Part shown: in pieces, positions 45,115 through 55,613 of the stretch
How positions within the stretch are numbered: the stretch's first letter is position 1
How the letters are laid out: every line of letters begins with the position of its first letter
DNA from: a virus
Lineage: Duplodnaviria; Heunggongvirae; Uroviricota; Caudoviricetes
Virus record (IMG/VR): IMGVR_UViG_2671180676_000004
Coordinates: 2,122-66,121 of that record
Direction: 5' to 3' (one strand)
DNA length: 64,000 nt
Program-made: the position numbers and the translations under genes
The notes under the pieces: generated by a model
Told to the model about the DNA's origin: nothing
Seen by the model: the letters and a program-made list of their open reading frames with translations, nothing else
Database searches by the model: none

Positions 45115-45904
45115 TAAAGCAATCCCTGAGCTTGGCTCTGACGTTATGCAGCAAATCTATCTCTGCGCCATAAATCGCTACCCTAATGAAGCGTGTGGCT
45201 TTCTGGTTAGAACTAATGGCGACAAATATCGCTTTATGGAAGCGCGGAATGTTTCGGAGAACCCGCAGAACACTTTTGTAATGCACGTTGACGACATTAT
45301 GGCGGCAGAGGATGCGGGTGATGTTATCGCAATCTGGCATTCACATACTGATGAATCAGCAGAAGCATCTGATGCCGATCGTGCAGGCTGCGAAGCGACG
45401 GAAGTTCCGTGGATGATTCTGGCTATTCGCAAGAATGTTGAGGGAGATGCCCCTTTCCATTTTAGCGAGATGAATGTGATCACACCTGATGGTTTCGAAA
45501 TGCCATACCTGGGTAGACCGTATGTATTTGGCGTATTCGATTGCTGGATGTTGTGTCGGGACTATTTGAAGCGTGAGTTTAACGTCGAGCTTAACCCGAA
45601 CGCACACCTGCATATTCCATCGTGGTACACCGGCGATAACGACATTCTCGACCAGAACTACCGAAACGAAGGGTTGGTACGGCTTGCGCCTGGAACAGAG
45701 CCTCAACGTGGGGACGTCTTCTTTATTCAATACGGGAAAATGCCAGATCACTGCGCGGTTTATATCGGTGATGGAATGATTCTTCATCACCAGATCGACC
45801 GTCTTAGTTGTCGTGCTTATTACGGCGGAATGTATCAGAAACATACGACGCATCACTTGCGTCACAGAGACTTGCTCAAGGGAGATGAGACGTGTCTGAG
45901 TTAG
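45107..45904 (+). CDS. tail assembly protein (gpK-like; MPN/JAMM plus NlpC/P60-type domains)
   Basis: ATG 45107 overlapping previous stop; HSHTDESAEASDADR JAMM-like motif; Cys/His pair (FDCW...HH) in C-terminal half. Confidence 0.65.
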   Translation: MGNKAIPELGSDVMQQIYLCAINRYPNEACGFLVRTNGDKYRFMEARNVSENPQNTFVMHVDDIMAAEDAGDVIAIWHSHTDESAEASDADRAGCEATEVPWMILAIRKNVEGDAPFHFSEMNVITPDGFEMPYLGRPYVFGVFDCWMLCRDYLKREFNVELNPNAHLHIPSWYTGDNDILDQNYRNEGLVRLAPGTEPQRGDVFFIQYGKMPDHCAVYIGDGMILHHQIDRLSCRAYYGGMYQKHTTHHLRHRDLLKGDETCLS

Positions 45905-46485
45905 TTCATGTGCAGCTTGGCGGACCTATGGCTAAACATTTTGGTCGCCACTGGCATCTAAAGGTGCGCAATACAAAACAGGCTCTGGATTTAATTGAAG
46001 CCAACAAGCCTGGGTTTAAAGCATGGATGAAGCGCAATATCAAAACCTATGACAGTTACCACATCCAGATCACCAATAAACAGGGCCACAAGTGGTCTGT
46101 TGACGAAAGTGAATATCAGATGATGGGGCAGTCTGACAACATTGCCAAAATCCGCATTACACCTGTTCCGCGAGGAAGCGGTGGATCTGCTTTTGGGTGG
46201 TTTCAGACGGTAGTAGGGGCCGCTTTGTTGGTTGTATCGGCGGTAGTGATGCCTGCTTTAGCACCTCTCGGTTTGTCACTGATGATGGGCGGCATATCAC
46301 AAATCATATCGCCGCAAGCCACTAACGAAAGTGTGAGACAGGCAGATAACTCGAACTCTTATTATTTCGACGGCCCTCAAAATACAGAAAACCAGGGCAA
46401 CCCAGTACAACTTATCTATGGCGAGGAAATTCTGGTTGGCTCACAGGTTGTGAGTTCTTCAATCACGATTGACCAGCTAATGTAA
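45892..46485 (+). CDS. tail assembly protein (gpI-like)
   Basis: 197 aa with hydrophobic C-terminal half; position before J. Confidence 0.6.
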   Translation: MSELVHVQLGGPMAKHFGRHWHLKVRNTKQALDLIEANKPGFKAWMKRNIKTYDSYHIQITNKQGHKWSVDESEYQMMGQSDNIAKIRITPVPRGSGGSAFGWFQTVVGAALLVVSAVVMPALAPLGLSLMMGGISQIISPQATNESVRQADNSNSYYFDGPQNTENQGNPVQLIYGEEILVGSQVVSSSITIDQLM

Positions 46486-46496
46486 ACAAGGATTTT

Positions 46497-49400
46497 TTGA
46501 ACATGGAACAGTTCAAGAAGAAAAAGCTACCGCTGTTTATTGCCGGTGCGGGTGGTAAAAAAAGCAGCAAAAGCTCCAGCCGTACACCGGTTGAAGCCGA
46601 CGATACCGTAAATTCTCGTGCAATGGCCGCTATCCTCGATCTTCTTGGGGAAGGGGTAATTGGCGGCTTAGTAAATGGCGCAAGATCTATTTTTATCGAC
46701 GATCTGCCGATTGTAAATGAAGACGGTTCCTCCAACTTCAGCGGAATCACATGGGATTTTCGCGACGGTTCACAAGACCAGACTCCAATGTCTGGCTTTG
46801 ATTTCGTTGAAACGCCTAAATCCGTCAATATCCAGTTAAAAAAAACACATTATGTAACGGTTTCAATCGATAACGATGAAGCTGATCGGGTTCGTGTCAT
46901 CATGAAGTTTCCTTCTTTGCGAAGCATAGATAAAAAAACTGGTGACACGAACGGTACGACTGTTGAGTACAAGTTCCAGATAGCAAATGGCGACTCAACA
47001 TTTGTAGATGTGGTCGCGGAAGGTGAAAAAAGCGTTGGCATTAAGCTAACAGCAAAGAAGACCGGCGTTTATTACCGTAGCTACGAGCTGAAGCTGCCTA
47101 AGCCTGGACGCGCATACAAGGTTCGTGTAGTCCGTATTACCGATGATAACAGTAGCCAGTATCTCTATAACGATACATGGGTGGATTCAATCGGGGAAAT
47201 TGTCGATACACCGATGAACTATCCAAACTCTGTTTTGGTTGGATTGAAGGTAAACTCTGAGCAATTCGGCAGCACCATGCCATCTCGCTCTTATCTGGTG
47301 CGTGGCCTAAAAATTCGAGTACCTTCAAACTATAACGAGTCCAGTAACACTTACGCTGGGGTATGGGATGGTACTTTTAAGCTGTTGTCTTCTTCGAACC
47401 CCGCGTGGATTCTCTTTGATTTGCTGACCAATGCTCGATATGGCCTTGGTCAGTATGTGTCGGAATCTATGATTGACCTTGGCCAGTTGTACCAGATTGG
47501 TCGATATTGTGACGAAGAGGTCGATGATGGCTTTGGTGGCAAAGAGAAACGCTTTGCAATCAATACGCAGATCACCAGTCGACAGGACGCATACCGGCTA
47601 ATTCAGGATATTGCTGGAGCATTCCGCGGCATGGTGTTTTGGGCTGGTGGGATGGTTAACATCATGCAGGATAGCCCATCAGATCCGGTAATGATGTTTA
47701 CCAACTCCAACGTCAAAGATGGATTGTTTACCTATAAAGGTTCTGCGCGTAAAGATCGCCCATCCGTTGCGCTCGTAACCTACAACAACAAGGAGGACGG
47801 TTATAAGCAAAACATCGAGTACGTCGAAGATCAGGACGCAATGCGCCGTTATGGTGAGCGTAAAACAGAAGTCGTAGCATTTGGCTGTACAAGCCGAGGG
47901 CAGGCTCACCGAGTTGGTTTGTGGCTTTTATATACCGCCAGAATGGAGTCGGATGTAATTACATTTACTGCCGGCTTAGACGCGTCATTTCTGATGCCTG
48001 GTGAAACCGTTCTGATTCAGAACAAATATCGCGCAGGCAAACGTAACTCAGGTCGAATTGTGGCGTTTACCAAAAACAGCGTCACACTCGATGCGCCTGT
48101 GTCGTTAGCCAAAGGCGGCTGCTTTATTCGAATACTGAATAAGGAAGGCAAAATCGTTGAACGCGATGTTCTTGAAACTGGCGAAAATATAACAAAAGTT
48201 ACGTTTTCAAAAGCCCTGTCTTCGGCTGAAACGCCTGTTTTGAACGGCGTCTGGACTATTACAGAACCAGACCTCGAACCTATGCGCGTTCGCATCGTTA
48301 ACATCGCGCAGGGGGAAACGCCGGGTAGCTTTGACATCACCGCTGTTGAGAACAATCCGTCTAAATATGAGGCGATCGACAATGGTGCAACGCTTATCCC
48401 TCAAAATACGACGGTATTGGACCCGACTTACTCCAAGCCGTCTAATTTGCAAATCACCGAAGGGACTTATCTCTCAAGCCCTGGCAACCTGTCAGTAAAA
48501 CTGACTGCAACATGGGAAGGGAAATCTCCAGAGTATTGGATCAGTTGGCGACGTTCTGATGAAAACAATGTATCGAACTGGCAATCGGCGCGTGTAACCG
48601 AAGAGCAATACGAAATCGTTAATGTTGCGGAGAATGGACGCTACGACTTCCAGCTGTATGCGGTTTCATTCAACGGTAAAAAAACAGAGATTATCAGTAC
48701 CGTTTATCAGGTGCTGGGCACAATGACACCGCCAGATGCCCCAACGTCATTAACGGCCGTTGGAGACTATCGTAATGTGATACTGAATTGGGTTAATCCA
48801 GATTCGGTAGACCTTGATCACATTAATGTTTACGCATCCCAGACCAACAATCTGGATACGGCGAAACTGATCGCAGAGTCTGCAAGCACCACCTTTACAC
48901 ATGCTGGTCTTGGGGATAGCGAAACGTGGTATTACTGGGTTCGAGCATCGAACAAGCGAGGTATGTTAAGTCCTCCGAACTCAAACTTGGGTACAGAGGC
49001 GACAACTCGCGATGTACTGTCGTTCCTGACTGGCAAAATTACATCTTCCGAGCTTGGTCAGGCTCTGCTTGAGGACATCAACAGCAAAGTCTCTCAAGAA
49101 GCAGTTGACGAGTTAAATGAGCATATCAACCAGAGCGTCGAATCTTTGGAGGGGTCGGTAAACGACGTTAAGGAAGATATAGCTGAATTAGATAAGCAGT
49201 TCAGCGATAACCTCGCGGATTTTGAAATAAAATTCAACGAGCGTAGCGATGCTTTGGAGAACGCACAAACCGAGCTTAAAGGTGAGGTTTCGGCAACGAT
49301 CGACAAGGTCAATGAAGCGTTTGAAAAAATTGATGCTACTGATGCTGCAATTGTTGAAATCGAAAACACCGTATCTGAACACGATAAAGCTCTCGCTAAT

Positions 49401-51230
49401 ACAGTCGAGGCAATAAAGGCTGCAAGAGATGAAGCGGCGGCTCTTATTGCTAAGGAAAGCGAGGCTCGTGTTGAAGGCGATGCTGCAAACGCTAAACAAT
49501 TGGAAGTGTTGCAGTCAACGGTAGAGGAAAGCTCCGCTGCCGTTGAAGAAATGAAAAAGACGGTTGCAGAGGTCGATCGTGCAAGTGCAGAACTGACTAC
49601 GAACATTGAGGCTTTGGCCAAAACAAATATTGACCTGGCTCTTCGTCAAGATGAAGACCAGCACAAGCAGATGGTCAATAACGCGAAGATCGCAACAACA
49701 CAGAAAACCTTTGCTGATGATATGTCTGCAATGGCCACGAAGGTTGAGGAAATTCGCGTAGAAATTGGCGAAGACATTAAGGCCAGTATTCTGGAAGAGT
49801 CCACCGCTCGTGCCGATGGCGATGAAGCGTTGGCAAAGCGTGTCACTCAGCTGCAATCTAAGTTTGAAGGAGATATCAGCGCGGCGATTAGTACAGAGCA
49901 GGAGGCTCGTACATCTGCCGATGAAGCTCTGACGACACAGATCACTCAGCTTGAGTCGAAAGTAAGCAACGATATCGTCGCAGCTATTAAGGAAGAGCAA
50001 GAAGCCCGAGCAACGGAAGATTCGGCTCTGGCAAGCCAGATCACCCAACTTCAGGCAAAGGTTGATGATGATATTTCTGCTGCAATACGTAGTGAGCAGG
50101 AGGCCCGAGCAAGCGGGGACTCTGCGTTAGCCAAACAAATAAACCAGCTTCAGTCAAAGGTTGACGGTGATATATCCGCGGCCATCACTCAGGAGCAGGA
50201 GGCCAGAGCAAGTGCTGACCAGGCGCTCTCACGAGAAATTAACAGCCTGCGAGCACAAACCGGAACTGATATTGCCGCAGCGGTTGCTGTAGAGACAAAA
50301 GCAAGGACTGATGCCGATAGTGCATTGTCTACCCAGATTACGTCTCTTACAGCAAAAGCTAATGATCTCGAGGCGTCTCTTGCCAGAGAAACAACGGCTC
50401 GTGCAGATGGTGATACCGCTTTAACAAAAGAGGTTTCAAGTTTAAAAGCACAGACAGCGAAAGATATTAGTGCGGCCGTTGCAGTTGAAACGCAGGCTCG
50501 AACTGATGCTGACTCGGCGTTGTCGTCTCAGATCACCAAGCTGACCTCTCAATACAAAGAGGATATTAAAGCGGCTGTAGCAACCGAAACGAAAACGCGT
50601 ACAGAGCAAGATGCTGCATTGGCGACTCAAATCACAAACTTAGAGTCTCAAACGGCAGCCAACATTTCCGCGGCGGTCACAACTGAAACGACAGCGAGAA
50701 CGCAGGCAGATAATGCTCTGAGTGGGCGAATCGATACTCTGAAAGCAGAGGTGAATGGAAATACCGCGACAATTCAACAGCAGGCAACAGCTATTGCTGA
50801 TACCAACAAAAAAGTGTCAACCGCGTGGACGTTGAAAATGGAGACTTCAACGAGCGGAGGGCAGAAGTATATTGCCGGTATTGCGCTTGGTATTGACACC
50901 ACTGGGCTATCTCAGTTTTTGGTTCAGGCGGACAGGTTTGGTTTGGTCAACTCTGTTAACGGGAAGATCACAACGCCATTTGTTATCGAAAACAGTATCG
51001 CCTATATGAATGGAGCGTATATCAAGGATGGCACAATCACCAATGCAAAAGTAGGCGATCTGCAATCTACCAATTTTGTTAGCGGTAGATCTGGATGGCG
51101 GTTCGGCAAAAATGGAACGCTTGAGATCAACGGTAATAGCGGCGGCAATGGGCGATTGGTTATAAATGGTCAGCGGATTGACGTTTATGACGATAACAAC
51201 GTCCTACGAGTAAGAATTGGCCGTCTGTGA
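46497..51230 (+). CDS. host specificity / central tail fibre protein (gpJ-like)
   Basis: 1577 aa; position after I; internal array of about ten 33-aa repeats; C-terminal distal domain. Confidence 0.85.
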   Translation: MNMEQFKKKKLPLFIAGAGGKKSSKSSSRTPVEADDTVNSRAMAAILDLLGEGVIGGLVNGARSIFIDDLPIVNEDGSSNFSGITWDFRDGSQDQTPMSGFDFVETPKSVNIQLKKTHYVTVSIDNDEADRVRVIMKFPSLRSIDKKTGDTNGTTVEYKFQIANGDSTFVDVVAEGEKSVGIKLTAKKTGVYYRSYELKLPKPGRAYKVRVVRITDDNSSQYLYNDTWVDSIGEIVDTPMNYPNSVLVGLKVNSEQFGSTMPSRSYLVRGLKIRVPSNYNESSNTYAGVWDGTFKLLSSSNPAWILFDLLTNARYGLGQYVSESMIDLGQLYQIGRYCDEEVDDGFGGKEKRFAINTQITSRQDAYRLIQDIAGAFRGMVFWAGGMVNIMQDSPSDPVMMFTNSNVKDGLFTYKGSARKDRPSVALVTYNNKEDGYKQNIEYVEDQDAMRRYGERKTEVVAFGCTSRGQAHRVGLWLLYTARMESDVITFTAGLDASFLMPGETVLIQNKYRAGKRNSGRIVAFTKNSVTLDAPVSLAKGGCFIRILNKEGKIVERDVLETGENITKVTFSKALSSAETPVLNGVWTITEPDLEPMRVRIVNIAQGETPGSFDITAVENNPSKYEAIDNGATLIPQNTTVLDPTYSKPSNLQITEGTYLSSPGNLSVKLTATWEGKSPEYWISWRRSDENNVSNWQSARVTEEQYEIVNVAENGRYDFQLYAVSFNGKKTEIISTVYQVLGTMTPPDAPTSLTAVGDYRNVILNWVNPDSVDLDHINVYASQTNNLDTAKLIAESASTTFTHAGLGDSETWYYWVRASNKRGMLSPPNSNLGTEATTRDVLSFLTGKITSSELGQALLEDINSKVSQEAVDELNEHINQSVESLEGSVNDVKEDIAELDKQFSDNLADFEIKFNERSDALENAQTELKGEVSATIDKVNEAFEKIDATDAAIVEIENTVSEHDKALANTVEAIKAARDEAAALIAKESEARVEGDAANAKQLEVLQSTVEESSAAVEEMKKTVAEVDRASAELTTNIEALAKTNIDLALRQDEDQHKQMVNNAKIATTQKTFADDMSAMATKVEEIRVEIGEDIKASILEESTARADGDEALAKRVTQLQSKFEGDISAAISTEQEARTSADEALTTQITQLESKVSNDIVAAIKEEQEARATEDSALASQITQLQAKVDDDISAAIRSEQEARASGDSALAKQINQLQSKVDGDISAAITQEQEARASADQALSREINSLRAQTGTDIAAAVAVETKARTDADSALSTQITSLTAKANDLEASLARETTARADGDTALTKEVSSLKAQTAKDISAAVAVETQARTDADSALSSQITKLTSQYKEDIKAAVATETKTRTEQDAALATQITNLESQTAANISAAVTTETTARTQADNALSGRIDTLKAEVNGNTATIQQQATAIADTNKKVSTAWTLKMETSTSGGQKYIAGIALGIDTTGLSQFLVQADRFGLVNSVNGKITTPFVIENSIAYMNGAYIKDGTITNAKVGDLQSTNFVSGRSGWRFGKNGTLEINGNSGGNGRLVINGQRIDVYDDNNVLRVRIGRL
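49780..50750. repeat. tandem 99-bp (33-aa) coding repeats inside gpJ-like gene
   Basis: about ten units of the form E(Q/T)(E/K)AR(A/T)..D.AL..QIT.L..K...DI.AA(I/V), mostly exactly 33 aa long. Confidence 0.75.
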
Positions 51231-51323
51231 TGGTGGAAAAAAAATTTTATATCGGTAAAAATAGGTAAGTATTTACTTAATGGCGGACAAGGATAACCCG
51301 CCAAATCAAGGAGCATATTCAAC

Positions 51324-54300
51324 ATGTGGTACAGGGAAGGTACTATCACATTTACACAGGGTAGCAATACTCTGGTTGGGGCAGGGACAGCCTGGAACGT
51401 AACAGCTAATGGTGTGTTGCCGGGGATGATCGTCATTGGCCCCGACAATAAGCTGTATGAGATCAAGCGCGTAATAAGCGATACGAATATTGTTCTCTCA
51501 GAACCTTATACCGGCGAAACTCAGTCTGAGGTTCCGTGCCGAATCATTACGACCTATGAAGGCGACTTAACACAGTTTAGCGCGCGCTTTACAGCACTAA
51601 TGTCGCGTATGTCGGCTGATTCCAAGTCTATGCGCAGTTGGTTGACTGCTCTGGATGAGGTGACAATCGAGCGTGAAGACGGTACAGAAGTAACCGTTAA
51701 GCCGCTAATGCAGATCGTCAACGAGCACAACGAAAACGTTGAGTGGTATAAAAATAACACTGACGCGATTGATGCTGCTGGCGACAAAGCTCGTGAGGCG
51801 GCGGCCAGTGCTGCCGCAGCAGCAGAAAGCGCCAATACCGCTGGAGAAAAAGCCTCTCAAGCGTCTCAAAGTGCATCCGCTGCGGCATCCTCACAAAGTG
51901 CCGCAAGTGCGAGTGCAACTGCTGCGAAAAAATCTGAAACGAATGCCGCAGCGTCACAACAATCAGCAGCCACTTCTGCATCCACCGCGACCACGAAAGC
52001 GTCAGAAGCTGCCACCTCAGCCCGGGATGCGGCGGCCTCAAAAGAGGCAGCGAAATCATCAGAAACGAGCGCAGCCTCGAGCGCCAGTAATGCCGCTTCC
52101 TCGGCAACGGCGGCAGGAAATTCCGCGAAGGCGGCAAAAACGTCCGAGACGAACGCCAGGTCTTCTGAAACGGCAGCGGGACAGAGCGCCTCGGCTGCGG
52201 CAGGCTCAAAAACAGCGGCTGCGTCGTCTGCCAGTGCCGCGTCAACAAGTGCCGGGCAGGCCTCAGCCAGTGCCACCGCCGCCGGAAAATCGGCAGAAAG
52301 TGCCGCATCGTCTGCTTCAACAGCCACAACGAAGGCTGGCGAAGCCACTGAACAGGCCAGCGCAGCAGCGAGGTCTGCTTCCGCAGCGAAGACATCCGAA
52401 ACGAACGCGAAAGCGTCGGAAACCCGTGCAGAATCCTCAAAAACGGCAGCCGCATCGTCCGCCAGTTCGGCAGCGTCATCGGCATCATCGGCGTCTGCTT
52501 CAAAAGATGAGGCGACCAGACAAGCGTCCGCAGCGAAGGGCAGCGCCACGACAGCATCCACGAAAGCAACAGAGGCGGCAGGCAGTGCGACGGCAGCATC
52601 TCAGAGCAAAACTGCTGCTGAATCCGCTGCGACCCGTGCGGAAGCTGCTGCTGATCGTGCTGAAGAGATTGCCGGTGCAGTTGCGATGGAAGATGCAAGC
52701 CTTACCACCAAAGGTGTTGTGAAACTTAGCAGTGCTGTCGACAGCACCAGTGAATCTTTAGCCGCGACACCAAAAGCAGTTAAGACCGCATATGATAATG
52801 CTGAAAAACGACTACAGAAGGATCAGAATGGTGCTGATATCCCCGACAAGGGCCGCTTCCTGAATAACATTAATGTTTACAGCAAAGGTGAAGTGGATCA
52901 GAAAAAGGGGATGCGATACGTTGTGGTCAATGCCCCGGCGGGTGTCCAGGAAGGTAAATATTATCCGTTAGTGATAAAAAGGAATGACAGCCATCGGGCA
53001 TCCCGCGTTGTCATTTCAACGCCAAGTCGCACAGCTAATCACAGAATGAATAACTGTGAGTTTAATGGTTTTGTTTGCGCAGGCGGCTGGACGGACCGGG
53101 GTAGCTATGCCTGTGGTATGTTCTGGGCTTATTCATCATCGGAACGCGCTATTCATTCCATTCTGATGAGTAATAAAGGCGATACCGTAGACAGCGTATT
53201 CTATATAGAAGGTGGGGCATTTCCCGTAGAGGTCTTTTTAGAAGAAGGACTTTCTGTTACTGCTCCTGCTTCTGATTATGTTGTTGCTGAAACGACTTAT
53301 AAATTTGGCGCAACTGATCCTTATTCTGAATCAGTTGCGGTAAATTTAATTTTAGATTTTAAACAAGGTAATGGATTTTATAGTTCGTATCCTGTTTTGA
53401 GTAAGTCAGACATTAGCGGTAATAAGGTTTACGCTAATGATGAAGTTATTGTCCGTAGTCAGAATGCGTTAAGGATGATTGCTGGCGATTACGGTGTCAT
53501 ATGGCGAAATGATGGAGCAAATACTTACTTGCTCATGACTGATAAAGGCGACCAGTACGGTGGCTGGAACGGTCTTCGACCATTTGCAGTAAATAACGCA
53601 ACAGGTGAAGTGACGATCAATACACCACTTAATTCTCCAAAAGGGGTTAAGGGGAACTCTGATACAGCTACGAAACTTCAGACTGCAAGAAAAATATCCG
53701 GTGTTCCATTTGATGGCTCTACTGATATCACTTTAACCGCCGCGCATGTTGCCGCTTTCGCAAGAAGAGCAACAGGGTCATATGCTGATGCTGATGGCGG
53801 CGTGCCGTGGAATGCTGAATCTGGTGCTTATAATGTAACTAGAACGGGCGACAGTTATATTCTTGCCAACTTTTATACTGGTGTAGGTAGTTGCCGTACG
53901 CTTCAAATTAAGGCTCACTATAAAAATGGTGGGTTGTTTTATCGTTCATCTCGCGATGGAAGTGGTTTTGAAAGTGGTTGGGAGCAGGTTTACACGACTG
54001 GATTTAGACCTCAGCCGGCTGATATAAACGCACCAACCGCTGCCGCCGGATGGTTAAATAGTGGTAACGGAACAGCATTTACGACTGCTCAGTTTATAAC
54101 GTGGCTAAATAATCAGGGTGCATTTTCAAACAAATATTGGATTGCACGGTGCTCATGGACTTACGCCAACAATAATTATATAGACGACACTGGATGTGGC
54201 AGGATCGATCTATCTGGTTCCGTGATTGAGGTGTTTAGTAATAAGTCAACAAGCCACTACACTATTCGTGTTACAACGACAACAACATCGGGCCATGGTG

Positions 54301-55613
54301 GTGTTAATAATGCGGAGTTTATTTATGTGTACAATGGCAGTGATTACTCGCCAGGCTGGCGTCGTTCTTATAATACTAGAAACAAACCAACAGCTTCTGA
54401 TGTAGGAGCATTATCGCTTTCTGGAGGAGCGTTAACTGGCGGATTAACTGCTGCTGGCGAGATTATTTCAAAATCGGCGAATGGTCTGCGCATTGCCTAC
54501 GGAAACTACGGATTCTTTATCCGAAACGATGGTTCAAGCACATACTTCATGTTGACCGATTCGGGTAACAGCCTGGGAACCTATAATAGTTTAAGGCCGC
54601 TTATCATTAACAATGCCAATGGTGCTGTTAGGATCGGTAATGGACTCAATGTTACTGGCGGCATCAATGGTAGTTTGGACGGTAATGCTTCAACAGCTAC
54701 GAAGTTGCAAACAGCGAGAAACATCAATGGTGTTAAGTTTGATGGTTCAGGCGATATCAATATTAATACATTGGTATCTCGTGGCCGAGTTACGGCGTTA
54801 AGCGGCTCTACTCAAGGCACTGCTGGCATTCAAATGTATGAGGCGTACAACAATAGCTACCCGACCATGTATGGCAACGTATTGCACATGAAAGGTGCGA
54901 GTGCTGCTGGTGAGGGAGAGTTGCTTATTGGCTGGAGTGGTACGAGCGGTGCACATGCGCCAGTTTTCATTCGCTCACGAAGAGATAACACAGGTGCGGC
55001 ATGGTCAGCGTGGGCGCAGGTATATACCGCTAAGGATTCAATCCCTGGTGTGAATACAACTGGTAATCAGAACACTACTGGTAATGCCGCAACCGCCACA
55101 AAATTGCAGACAGCAAGGAAAATTGCTGGTGTGGCATTTGATGGCTCTGCCGATATAACTTTGACTGCGGCTAACCTTAATGCTTACACGAAAACAGAGG
55201 TAACAAACCTTCTAAGTTCCTATGTGAAGAGCAGTGCTCTTCCAAGCATGACTGTGCGAACTTCCTCTGTTTCAGGTGGGGATATGGGCATGAGCTTGTC
55301 CGCATTCATTAGCCACCTAAAATCAAATGGGGCGTTTAGCAAAAGTTATTGGATTGGCTTTGGCGATGCTATGGGATTCAATGCTGGCAGTATCAACAAT
55401 ATAACGGGATTTGGTGCTGTAGAATTAGCAGAATCTATAATCGAAGTTTTTAATCTACCTAACGGTGATTATACAATTCGTTTAACAACGTCACATAAAG
55501 CTGACTACGGTGGAGTTACAAACGCAATCCTCGTTTATCACTACCGTAGTAATAGAAGTCCGTCAGGTCAATGGCTGAAATTTGCAGGTACTGTTGGGGC
55601 AACAAGTAACTGA
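51324..55613 (+). CDS. side tail fibre protein
   Basis: 1429 aa; 300-aa Ala/Ser-rich low-complexity region; three copies of ATKLQTARxIxGVxFDGSxDI motif in C-terminal half. Confidence 0.8.
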   Translation: MWYREGTITFTQGSNTLVGAGTAWNVTANGVLPGMIVIGPDNKLYEIKRVISDTNIVLSEPYTGETQSEVPCRIITTYEGDLTQFSARFTALMSRMSADSKSMRSWLTALDEVTIEREDGTEVTVKPLMQIVNEHNENVEWYKNNTDAIDAAGDKAREAAASAAAAAESANTAGEKASQASQSASAAASSQSAASASATAAKKSETNAAASQQSAATSASTATTKASEAATSARDAAASKEAAKSSETSAASSASNAASSATAAGNSAKAAKTSETNARSSETAAGQSASAAAGSKTAAASSASAASTSAGQASASATAAGKSAESAASSASTATTKAGEATEQASAAARSASAAKTSETNAKASETRAESSKTAAASSASSAASSASSASASKDEATRQASAAKGSATTASTKATEAAGSATAASQSKTAAESAATRAEAAADRAEEIAGAVAMEDASLTTKGVVKLSSAVDSTSESLAATPKAVKTAYDNAEKRLQKDQNGADIPDKGRFLNNINVYSKGEVDQKKGMRYVVVNAPAGVQEGKYYPLVIKRNDSHRASRVVISTPSRTANHRMNNCEFNGFVCAGGWTDRGSYACGMFWAYSSSERAIHSILMSNKGDTVDSVFYIEGGAFPVEVFLEEGLSVTAPASDYVVAETTYKFGATDPYSESVAVNLILDFKQGNGFYSSYPVLSKSDISGNKVYANDEVIVRSQNALRMIAGDYGVIWRNDGANTYLLMTDKGDQYGGWNGLRPFAVNNATGEVTINTPLNSPKGVKGNSDTATKLQTARKISGVPFDGSTDITLTAAHVAAFARRATGSYADADGGVPWNAESGAYNVTRTGDSYILANFYTGVGSCRTLQIKAHYKNGGLFYRSSRDGSGFESGWEQVYTTGFRPQPADINAPTAAAGWLNSGNGTAFTTAQFITWLNNQGAFSNKYWIARCSWTYANNNYIDDTGCGRIDLSGSVIEVFSNKSTSHYTIRVTTTTTSGHGGVNNAEFIYVYNGSDYSPGWRRSYNTRNKPTASDVGALSLSGGALTGGLTAAGEIISKSANGLRIAYGNYGFFIRNDGSSTYFMLTDSGNSLGTYNSLRPLIINNANGAVRIGNGLNVTGGINGSLDGNASTATKLQTARNINGVKFDGSGDININTLVSRGRVTALSGSTQGTAGIQMYEAYNNSYPTMYGNVLHMKGASAAGEGELLIGWSGTSGAHAPVFIRSRRDNTGAAWSAWAQVYTAKDSIPGVNTTGNQNTTGNAATATKLQTARKIAGVAFDGSADITLTAANLNAYTKTEVTNLLSSYVKSSALPSMTVRTSSVSGGDMGMSLSAFISHLKSNGAFSKSYWIGFGDAMGFNAGSINNITGFGAVELAESIIEVFNLPNGDYTIRLTTSHKADYGGVTNAILVYHYRSNRSPSGQWLKFAGTVGATSN
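51780..52700. repeat. Ala/Ser-rich low-complexity coding region of side tail fibre
   Basis: recurrent KTSETNA / SASAAA units; generates spurious long ORFs in other frames and on the opposite strand. Confidence 0.7.

Follow-up and report, generated by a model that had tools for sequence, protein, structure and literature searches.

A ten-unit array of 33-residue repeats in the central tail fibre of an SSU5-like phage-plasmid and its relationship to the F-type pyocin shaft

How non-contractile tails, which most known phages carry, get through the outer membrane when they have no sheath to contract is a long-standing question, and a gene in a 64,000-nucleotide (nt) stretch of viral DNA (IMG/VR record IMGVR_UViG_2671180676_000004, positions 2,122 to 66,121; the whole stretch is hereafter called the window) raises it in a particular form. 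This gene (46497..51230, plus strand), a single long open reading frame (ORF) of 1577 amino acids (aa) counted from a TTG, encodes a gpJ-like central fibre or tail tip protein, and ten tandem units of about 33 residues are set in its distal part (aa 1101-1429; 49797..50783, plus strand). What role could so regular an array play in a central fibre? An earlier note on this DNA had proposed a helical, heptad-like stalk whose length would change by unequal recombination between units. In the explanation that we consider best overall, to which we give a somewhat better than even chance, the array is part of a modular helical shaft related by homology to the shaft that switches fold in F-type pyocin fibres; that the element is a helical, unit-built and length-polymorphic shaft of the central fibre is very likely.

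The ten-unit array and its predicted helix

The array was delimited by a hidden Markov model (HMM) of the units, lag identity, AlphaFold2 and the motif pattern described below. Its units start at aa 1101, 1134, 1167, 1200, 1233, 1266, 1298, 1331, 1364 and 1397 (nt 49797, 49896, 49995, 50094, 50193, 50292, 50388, 50487, 50586 and 50685), and nine of the ten are 33 aa long, unit 6 (from 50292) being one residue short (32 aa, 96 nt). Residue identity at lag 33 reached 47.6%, versus 10.0 ± 1.7% in 5000 shuffles (z = 22.5), and was only 5-13% at lags 30-32 and 34-35; with a z of 22, chance low complexity was ruled out as the source of the array. Each unit scored 43-60 bits with the unit HMM (independent E-values (iE) of 1e-15 to 5e-20), scores that are partly circular, the HMM having been built from the same units. 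The residues E1, R5, D9, A11, L12 and L19 are invariant in 10/10 units, an acidic D/N-G-D cluster occupies positions 24-26 of each unit, and the array is composed of 22% Ser/Thr and 20% Ala. The lag identity, the HMM and the unit lengths bear out the earlier claim of about ten tandem 33-residue repeats inside a gpJ-like tail tip protein; the unit consensus then given was correct, and the coordinates 49780-50750 denoted the same object, with ends off by about 17-33 nt.

Upstream of the array lies a proximal helical shaft (aa ~840-1100; 49014..49796, plus strand), which is non-repetitive to weakly repetitive, has a hydrophobic period of 3.56 and contains no proline. Degenerate units were found in it, two of them spaced 32 residues apart (aa ~955-1030, nt 49359-49586) and one called 'unit 0' (aa 1068-1100, nt 49698-49796), with weak unit-HMM matches at 987-1015 (iE 1.5e-4) and 1077-1098 (iE 0.04).

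No proline occurs anywhere in aa 840-1429. The Fourier power of array hydrophobicity peaks at 3.66 residues (33/9, three hendecads per unit), amounting to 61-87 at 3.66-3.67 versus 3.1 at 3.5, with no power near 2. A canonical heptad coiled coil was ruled out by the near-zero power at 3.5 and the peak at about 3.67, and the description as heptad-like in the earlier note had to be dropped. Because 33 residues would make exactly nine helical turns (three hendecads) per unit, the hydrophobic seam would stay in phase between units. Hendecad (11/3) trimeric coiled coils, for example the stalks of trimeric autotransporter adhesins, combine a period of 3.67 with a core rich in Ala and polar residues, and are modular with a variable repeat number; the autotransporter stalks are static, and they are not known to stand beside a beta-prism seed or to be related in sequence to the window array.

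AlphaFold2 was run on two monomers, aa 1098-1577 (98 homologues) and aa 1331-1577 (121 homologues). The first model is helical at aa 1099-1253 and 1259-1408 and beta thereafter (predicted local distance difference test (pLDDT) about 80, mean 78), and the second is helical at 1332-1407 with strands from 1408 (pLDDT about 90), so that both runs agree with the claim that the units are helical. A break in the predicted helix falls in unit 5, at aa 1254-1258 'QTGTD' (50256..50270, plus strand; model residues 157-161, non-helical, pLDDT below 50). When the model was compared with the PDB by Foldseek, only the beta C-terminal domain was matched (lambda gpJ central fibre 8xcj/8xci; SU10 7z4b_EA), and no F-pyocin entry was among the matches. 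By standard helix geometry (0.15 nm per residue), the array would be ~49 nm long as a helix, or 4.95 nm per unit.

The domains found by Pfam place the array within the central fibre, as had been supposed, between an FN3 and a tail-tip domain. FNIII-A_GpJ (aa 104-238; PF24801, 1.5e-29), Phage-tail_3 (aa 360-523; PF13550, 7e-34) and an FN3 domain (aa 747-826; 48735..48974, plus strand; fn3, E = 2e-5) precede the helical shaft; from the end of fn3 at aa 826 the layout continues as predicted helix to aa 1407 and as beta from aa 1408, and a Phage_Tail_Tip (DUF1983) beta domain (aa 1425-1559; 50769..51173, plus strand; PF09327, E = 2e-41) overlaps the end of unit 10. In a sequence search of the PDB, aa 20-862 matched the F2 pyocin fibre, T1 gp33 and lambda gpJ, the last (8iyk) at 2.8e-124 across aa 21-862 by phmmer. 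With its N-terminal hub, FNIII-A, Phage-tail_3 and Phage_Tail_Tip, the ORF encodes a TipJ or lambda gpJ-like central fibre protein. Lambda gpJ (PDB 8iyk, 8xcj) is homologous to it in the N-terminal 860 residues and in Phage_Tail_Tip; unlike the window protein, lambda gpJ has no helical repeat array, its FN3 domains joining the beta fibre almost directly, and it carries a C-terminal LamB-binding domain that the window protein lacks. No large fold switch has been reported for it.

Over its full length the window protein is 99.4% identical to its counterpart in Escherichia phage Cyrano, there named 'tail host specificity protein J', and it is related to that of Salmonella phage SSU5. Cyrano is the phage-plasmid pLF82 of E. 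coli LF82 (PMC9928086), and the window belongs to an SSU5-like E. coli phage-plasmid of the Cyrano/pLF82 type. The same J allele was found in 167 of 5426 complete E. coli genomes, plasmid-borne in every case, and Yersinia pestis pMT1 and Salmonella Typhi pHCM2 are among the relatives. In PLSDB, 425 plasmids matched over 80% or more of the query.

The array and the switch region of F-type pyocins

The central fibre of F-type pyocins is described in three papers of 2026 (PMC12874032; PMC13455828; bioRxiv 2026.02.24.707460). After its FNIII domains the pyocin fibre has a long trimeric alpha-helical shaft (about residues 907-1085), which bears side fibres, and then a beta-prism C-terminus (PMC13455828; bioRxiv 2026.02.24.707460); in F-pyocin and in lambda the tip is closed by FNIII domains whose position is equivalent to that of the FN3 of the window protein (PMC12874032; PMC13455828). 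The pre-ejection structures are helical (all three papers). He et al. (2026) captured a second state with an open tip and no tape-measure protein left, the 163-residue coiled coil (921-1083) having turned over its full length into a triangular beta-prism (PMC12874032). Gln at the small corner residues A987, A995, V1010 and A1017 abolished killing and left assembly unaffected, and Gln at A998 or A1011 caused no loss of killing (PMC12874032). Each prism strand carries a SxSxxMxxLxS motif whose orientation follows that of the strand, and acidic M residues are paired with Arg at i+/-4, as in the salt bridge E1039-R1043 (PMC12874032); L1050/I1054 are core knobs (PA0641 preprint, bioRxiv 2026.02.24.707460). 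Similar switches were predicted in 21 of 24 related siphophage fibres (PMC12874032). The main text of He et al. does not mention SSU5 or use the word 'repeat', the PA0641 preprint uses it only within 'heptad repeat', and in the sections of all three papers drawn on here there is no mention of a tandem-unit architecture or of copy-number variation.

Using phmmer, residues 882-1193 of the F2 pyocin fibre (25vf) were aligned to aa 1242-1549 of J (E = 7e-24). T1 gp33 (9l9p) and 9ze4, a 429-aa chain with related repeats, were also tied to the C-terminal half of J by the sequence search of the PDB. Residues 987, 995, 998, 1010, 1011, 1017, 1039, 1043, 1050 and 1054 of the aligned pyocin chain are A, A, A, V, A, A, E, R, L and I, matching the published names, and the alignment equates E1/R5/L12/I16 of unit 10 with pyocin E1039/R1043/L1050/I1054. 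The unit HMM scored 29.7 bits on F2 pyocin 1039-1071. Unit 10 and the domain next to it are clearly homologous to the pyocin fibre, and units 1-9 are linked to the pyocin only via their similarity to unit 10 and the common motif. In the model, positions 12-23 of unit 10 are predicted as beta, whereas the pyocin equivalent is helical before ejection. The pyocin central fibre protein (F7 CFP; F2 PyoF10 / PA0641; PDB 25vf, 25vj, 26ci) thus resembles the window protein in its hub, FNIII, coiled-coil shaft and beta tail-tip domain, in the residue-for-residue alignment of the last unit, in the alternating motif, and in having little sequence beyond the tail-tip domain and no receptor-binding domain of the lambda type. 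The two differ in regularity and extent: the pyocin switch region has 163 residues with a degenerate 32-residue period and is described as heptads plus a stutter, whereas the window array has ten well-kept units, 329 aa and a period of 3.67, and about 260 further helical residues lie beyond the array in the window shaft. The earlier note was incomplete on function in overlooking this homology to a refolding coiled coil, which, as judged from sequence, most likely points to the main role of the array.

The alternation of the motif was examined with a regular expression. The forward SxSxxMxxLxS was found at unit positions 11-21 (A11, x13, I16, L19, x21) in 10/10 units, and the reversed motif, running from position 29 to position 6 of the next unit (A29, I31, E1', A4', A6'), at 9/9 junctions between units and at the unit 0/1 junction as well, so that the spacing in the window is 18 + 15 = 33. 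The acidic M residue with Arg at i+/-4 has its counterpart in the E1/R5 pair of 10/10 units. Within the proximal shaft, forward hits fell at 965, 997 and 1078 and reverse hits at 982, 1014 and 1096. The same expression applied to the F2 pyocin gave forward hits at 985/1017/1049 and reverse hits at 1002/1034/1066, a strict 32-residue period. In this register 4/4 of the corner residues named by He et al. fell on S positions and E1039 fell on M, and neither control (A998, A1011) was on an S position. The M and L positions of the window (16, 19, 31, 1') lie on the 3.67-periodic helical seam and most S positions lie off it, as He et al. describe for the pyocin (PMC12874032). The forward and the reversed motif gave 16 and 10 hits, versus 2.7 ± 1.6 in shuffles, and the six S positions are small in 93-100% of 279 distinct units from relatives and distant homologues, versus 37-77% at other non-seam positions. 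The motif pattern and the small residues speak for a switch of the pyocin type, as does the beta prediction within unit 10.

By homology to the pyocin fibre, the array may be regarded as the distal part (329 residues) of an alpha-helical shaft, ~590 residues long and presumably a trimer, that would join the closed tail tip (the FN3 domains) to the C-terminal beta tail-tip domain and act as a metastable spring. Engagement of a receptor at the distal end would make the coiled coil refold into a triangular beta-prism, seeded by the adjoining beta domain, with Phage_Tail_Tip (50769..51173) as the proposed seed. Each unit would supply one beta-hairpin, with its forward strand at 11-21 and its reverse strand at 29-6'; the array would then form ten hairpins, about twice the pyocin switch region, and would shorten from ~49 nm to ~10 nm as twenty strands while the tip opens and the tape-measure protein is released. 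The helix-to-prism switch has been demonstrated for the pyocin; for the window phage we infer it by homology, and the chances that its shaft is a fold-switching spring appear to us evenly balanced.

Several points weigh against a switch in the window phage. With the array alone as query, phmmer did not recover the pyocin fibre at E <= 1, so that the homology of the coil lies mainly in the last unit and the adjoining domain. The shuffle statistics of the motif overstate independence, the motif being permissive and the ten units copies of one ancestor, and a random 33-mer of the same composition is estimated to show both orientations at suitable spacing in about 1-2% of cases. The census of S positions is biased by the use of an HMM built from the window units. 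Monomer AlphaFold2 gave helix, not sheet, for units 1-9, and the prism state was not predicted. The alignment figure of He et al. mentions five to six strands (PMC12874032), and two strands per 32-33 residues are a proposal made here; the stability of the pyocin coil depends on bound side fibres; and lambda and T5 open their tips with no such switch (PMC12874032). At the N-terminus of the fibre encoded downstream of J, no homologue of a pyocin side-fibre N-domain was found at E <= 0.01 against the solved pyocin side-fibre chains, and no homologues of PyoF11/F12 or of pyocin-type side fibres were found in the window.

A possible alternative, which we rate as clearly less probable than a shaft of pyocin type, is a passive spacer: a stable trimeric coiled-coil stalk that would hold the distal binding domain at a fixed distance and never refold, its unit number tuning reach through O-antigen or capsule and the tip being opened by a lambda/T5-like signal along a rigid fibre. 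Such a stalk would fit the good confidence with which both AlphaFold2 models show units 1-9 as helix, the regular 3.67 periodicity with no proline, the variation in unit number and the fact that lambda and T5 function without a large fold switch (PMC12874032). It leaves unexplained, however, the near-absolute small residues at six positions that are mostly off the helical seam, the alternating forward and reverse pyocin motif, and the residue-level match of unit 10 to a segment experimentally known to refold, and contents of 22% Ser/Thr and 20% Ala are unusually high for a stable coiled coil.

It is unlikely that the repeats serve as a docking rack, each binding N-terminal domains of the downstream fibre so that more units would carry more, or differently placed, side fibres. 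F-pyocin side fibres do bind an acidic patch or kink of the shaft (PMC12874032; PMC13455828; bioRxiv 2026.02.24.707460), kinks of such a type are possibly side-fibre attachment sites (He et al., PMC12874032, Fig. 5 legend), and the window offers an acidic D/N-G-D cluster at positions 24-26 of every unit, the AlphaFold2 kink in unit 5 and a large fibre gene after J. Yet the pyocin fibres are bound by one short segment only and not by each repeat, and at the N-terminus of the downstream fibre no similarity to the solved pyocin side-fibre chains could be detected. A docking role could be compatible with either a switching or a passive shaft. Most improbable of all is a prism or beta-helix already present in the free virion, the helix prediction then being an artefact of shallow alignments and monomer folding: in the work of He et al. 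AlphaFold3 returned prisms for 30% of related phage fibres and that form was favoured by deep alignments (PMC12874032), and the alignments here had only 98-121 sequences, but the strong 3.67-residue hydrophobic periodicity with no power near 2, the helical pre-ejection pyocin structures and the E1-R5-D9 i/i+4 ladder, a helical feature, all speak for a helix.

Unit number among relatives and the spread of the unit

The array is a protein repeat, not a DNA repeat. Tandem Repeats Finder reported no period-99 array in 48000-53000, unit-to-unit DNA identity averages 51% with a maximum of 69% (units 3 and 4), the longest in-register exact run between units is 12 nt, and synonymous codons at invariant residues vary between units. 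A DNA-level variable-number tandem repeat or contingency locus was ruled out by this unit-by-unit comparison together with the lack of a period-99 array. In two E. coli lineages with arrays that are only about 70% identical in protein, the units correspond as orthologues position by position. The low inter-unit DNA identity, the varied synonymous codons and the positional orthology across lineages indicate that the array is old and is not being homogenised.

Units were counted by applying the unit HMM to plasmid, phage and E. coli genome records; protein homologues of <900 aa, mostly partial, served for unit periods and not for a full-length census. Eleven units were found in the E. coli CUPF06 plasmid; ten in the window, Cyrano and two CMS-2020a records; nine in phage PhiR41_1 and the E. 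coli plasmids of AH02, AH04 and HCP30S3_I2; six in Y. pestis pMT1 and plasmids of Citrobacter freundii and Enterobacter hormaechei; five in SSU5 and plasmids of Escherichia marmotae, Enterobacter cloacae and E. coli S56; and four in S. Typhi pHCM2. Named phages therefore encode 5-, 9- and 10-unit proteins (SSU5, PhiR41_1 and Cyrano, respectively). In an even sample of 60 of the 167 E. coli plasmids, the array has 10 units and is intact in 56, has 9 units in two and 11 in a single one, and in the remaining plasmid a 10-unit array is split by IS1; unit number within the E. coli lineage is nearly fixed at 10. In the plasmid of E. coli AR_0104 (NZ_CP020118.1, 41870-43946), the repeat region of J is split by IS1, and a functional central fibre is probably beyond this phage-plasmid.

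Four independent indels, each of exactly 99 bp and in register, were identified between alleles that are otherwise 99-100% identical around the site. The AH02/AH04 plasmids lack about 50118-50216 (exactly 99 bp), which yields a u4/u5 chimera with a 3-nt GAC junction; HCP30S3_I2 lacks about 50056-50154 (99 bp), which yields a u3/u4 chimera; CUPF06 carries unit 4 twice in tandem, with the extra copy placed after 50093 and 2 nt of difference between the copies; and a 99-bp difference separates PhiR41_1 from CMS-2020a (SCU-175), its junction being the 11-nt GCTGCTATTAA. All four fall in units 3-5 (49995..50291, plus strand), the units most similar in DNA (u3-u4 69%), which form an indel hot spot, and the junctions have microhomologies of 3-11 nt. 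With DNA identity of ~51% and such junctions, slippage or illegitimate recombination is indicated rather than homologous crossing-over, and unit number changes rarely, by microhomology-scale events. The unequal recombination proposed in the earlier note therefore stands as far as gain and loss of whole units is concerned, and does not fit as homologous crossing-over between long repeats. The length-variable stalk itself holds in substance, with 4-11 units among relatives and whole-unit 99-bp indels between near-identical alleles; a unit number invariant among relatives and the lack of a continuous helix were also looked for, and what was found is a number that varies from 4 to 11 and a predicted helix.

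In the proposed mechanism, rare in-register 99-bp slippage or microhomology events would shift the unit number (4-11), which would set the resting length of the shaft, and the stroke too if the switch occurs; it might also affect host range. More tentatively, the 33-residue unit may be a dual-register module, nine turns at rest and one hairpin when refolded, the unit number fixing in whole steps how long a fold-switch spring is, how far it moves (a stroke of about 4 nm per unit) and how much energy it stores for driving a non-contractile tail through the envelope; if so, this would account for only whole-unit (99-bp) indels having been seen. The locus offers a very regular, long version of the pyocin-type element, with ten clean units, in a widespread family of enterobacterial phage-plasmids. 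If the shaft does switch, natural unit-number alleles would be ready material on how shaft length and stroke relate to adsorption and ejection, force generation by the tail could be tested directly on a series of 4, 5, 6, 9, 10 and 11 units in phages growable on E. coli K-12 or Salmonella (PhiR41_1 plates on MG1655), and fibre length could be engineered in phage-plasmids and tailocins. Were the fold switch wrong, a well-documented length-polymorphic stalk of ordinary interest would still be left.

Virion production is documented for Cyrano, whose tail measures 259 +/- 12 nm versus 230 nm predicted from the length of the tape-measure protein, with no fibre resolved (PMC9928086). The tip, together with some of the central fibre, might contribute to this excess of ~30 nm.

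The unit module is a widespread building block of J-like fibres, and the window array is long and regular within this group, not unique. A scan of 1.84 billion representative proteins with the array returned 1804 clusters at E <= 1e-3, 711 at <= 1e-10 and 111 at <= 1e-30. Among the best 137 new representatives, the spacing between units was mostly 32 (269 steps), followed by 33 (58) and 36 (45); a protein has at most 20 units, and in one of them 17 units follow each other without interruption. The best distant match, a 2138-aa metagenomic protein (E = 5.5e-159, 44% identity), has 20 units, including 17 consecutive units of 32-33 aa, nearly twice the window array. Related arrays are also present in cultured phages, among them T1-like phages, Burkholderia KS9, Psychrobacter Psymv2, and Vibrio, Aeromonas, Stenotrophomonas and Xanthomonas phages. 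The T1 gp33 central fibre (PDB 9l9p) and other Drexlerviridae J-like proteins carry 33-residue repeats of the same family (array-only phmmer E = 1e-10; 27 bits per unit). T1 gp33 ends at its C-terminus as the window protein does (…LRV.IGRL) and has only about 3-4 units, two of them identical copies, whereas the window has ten; its C-terminal 350 residues are unresolved in the cryo-electron microscopy map, which gives no structural information on the repeats (PMC11945409).

Other forms of J were observed as well. Those of Klebsiella phages, the E. coli O9:H10 plasmid NZ_CP062854 and the Aeromonas plasmid CP053880 have the N-terminal ~870 aa in common with the window protein, and in these giant versions (2368, 3662 and 2477 aa) no units were recognised by the 33-aa HMM. 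Part of some Klebsiella J proteins is labelled 'Chromosome partition protein Smc' in PLSDB, presumably a coiled-coil artefact. The J proteins with 4-6 units (Eh27, C. freundii, pHCM2, pMT1 and E. coli S56) have an extra 75-190 residues after the tail-tip domain; this C-terminal extension is not present in the window protein, some database fragments of this type have PF12421, and unit number and type of extension may co-vary.

Gene order and neighbouring reading frames

In the annotated syntenic region of PhiR41_1 and SSU5 the genes follow the order M-L-K-I-J and are followed by fibre genes, and the window fits this order, with a gpI-like ORF before J and a fibre ORF after it. The gpI-like tail assembly or tip plug protein gene (45892..46485, plus strand) lies directly upstream of J; its ORF had no Pfam match, and the syntenic gene of PhiR41_1 is annotated 'tail tip assembly protein I'. 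For J itself, the ATG at 46503 is the start annotated in relatives and gives a protein of 1575 aa (MEQFKKK…), and the TTG at 46497 gives MNMEQF…; an AAGGA stands 4 nt upstream of the TTG and 10 nt upstream of the ATG.

Downstream of J, an ORF at 51324..55613 (plus strand) encodes a 1429-aa fibre protein with two Gp34_trimer domains (Pfam), annotated as side tail fibre in relatives, with PDB matches to the Mu/P1-type fibre protein S and T4 gp34; it is a candidate partner of the shaft or the tip. About 330 residues of this protein (aa ~150-480) form an Ala/Ser/Thr-rich low-complexity stretch, over which long spurious ORFs run at 51718-52698 (minus strand), 51739-52722 (plus strand) and 51866-52561 (minus strand). 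Antisense ORFs of 175, 103 and 177 aa likewise lie opposite the coding region of the helical shaft (49094-50048, minus strand); with their odd Ser/Cys/Leu-rich translations, they look like by-products of a stop-poor composition rather than genes.

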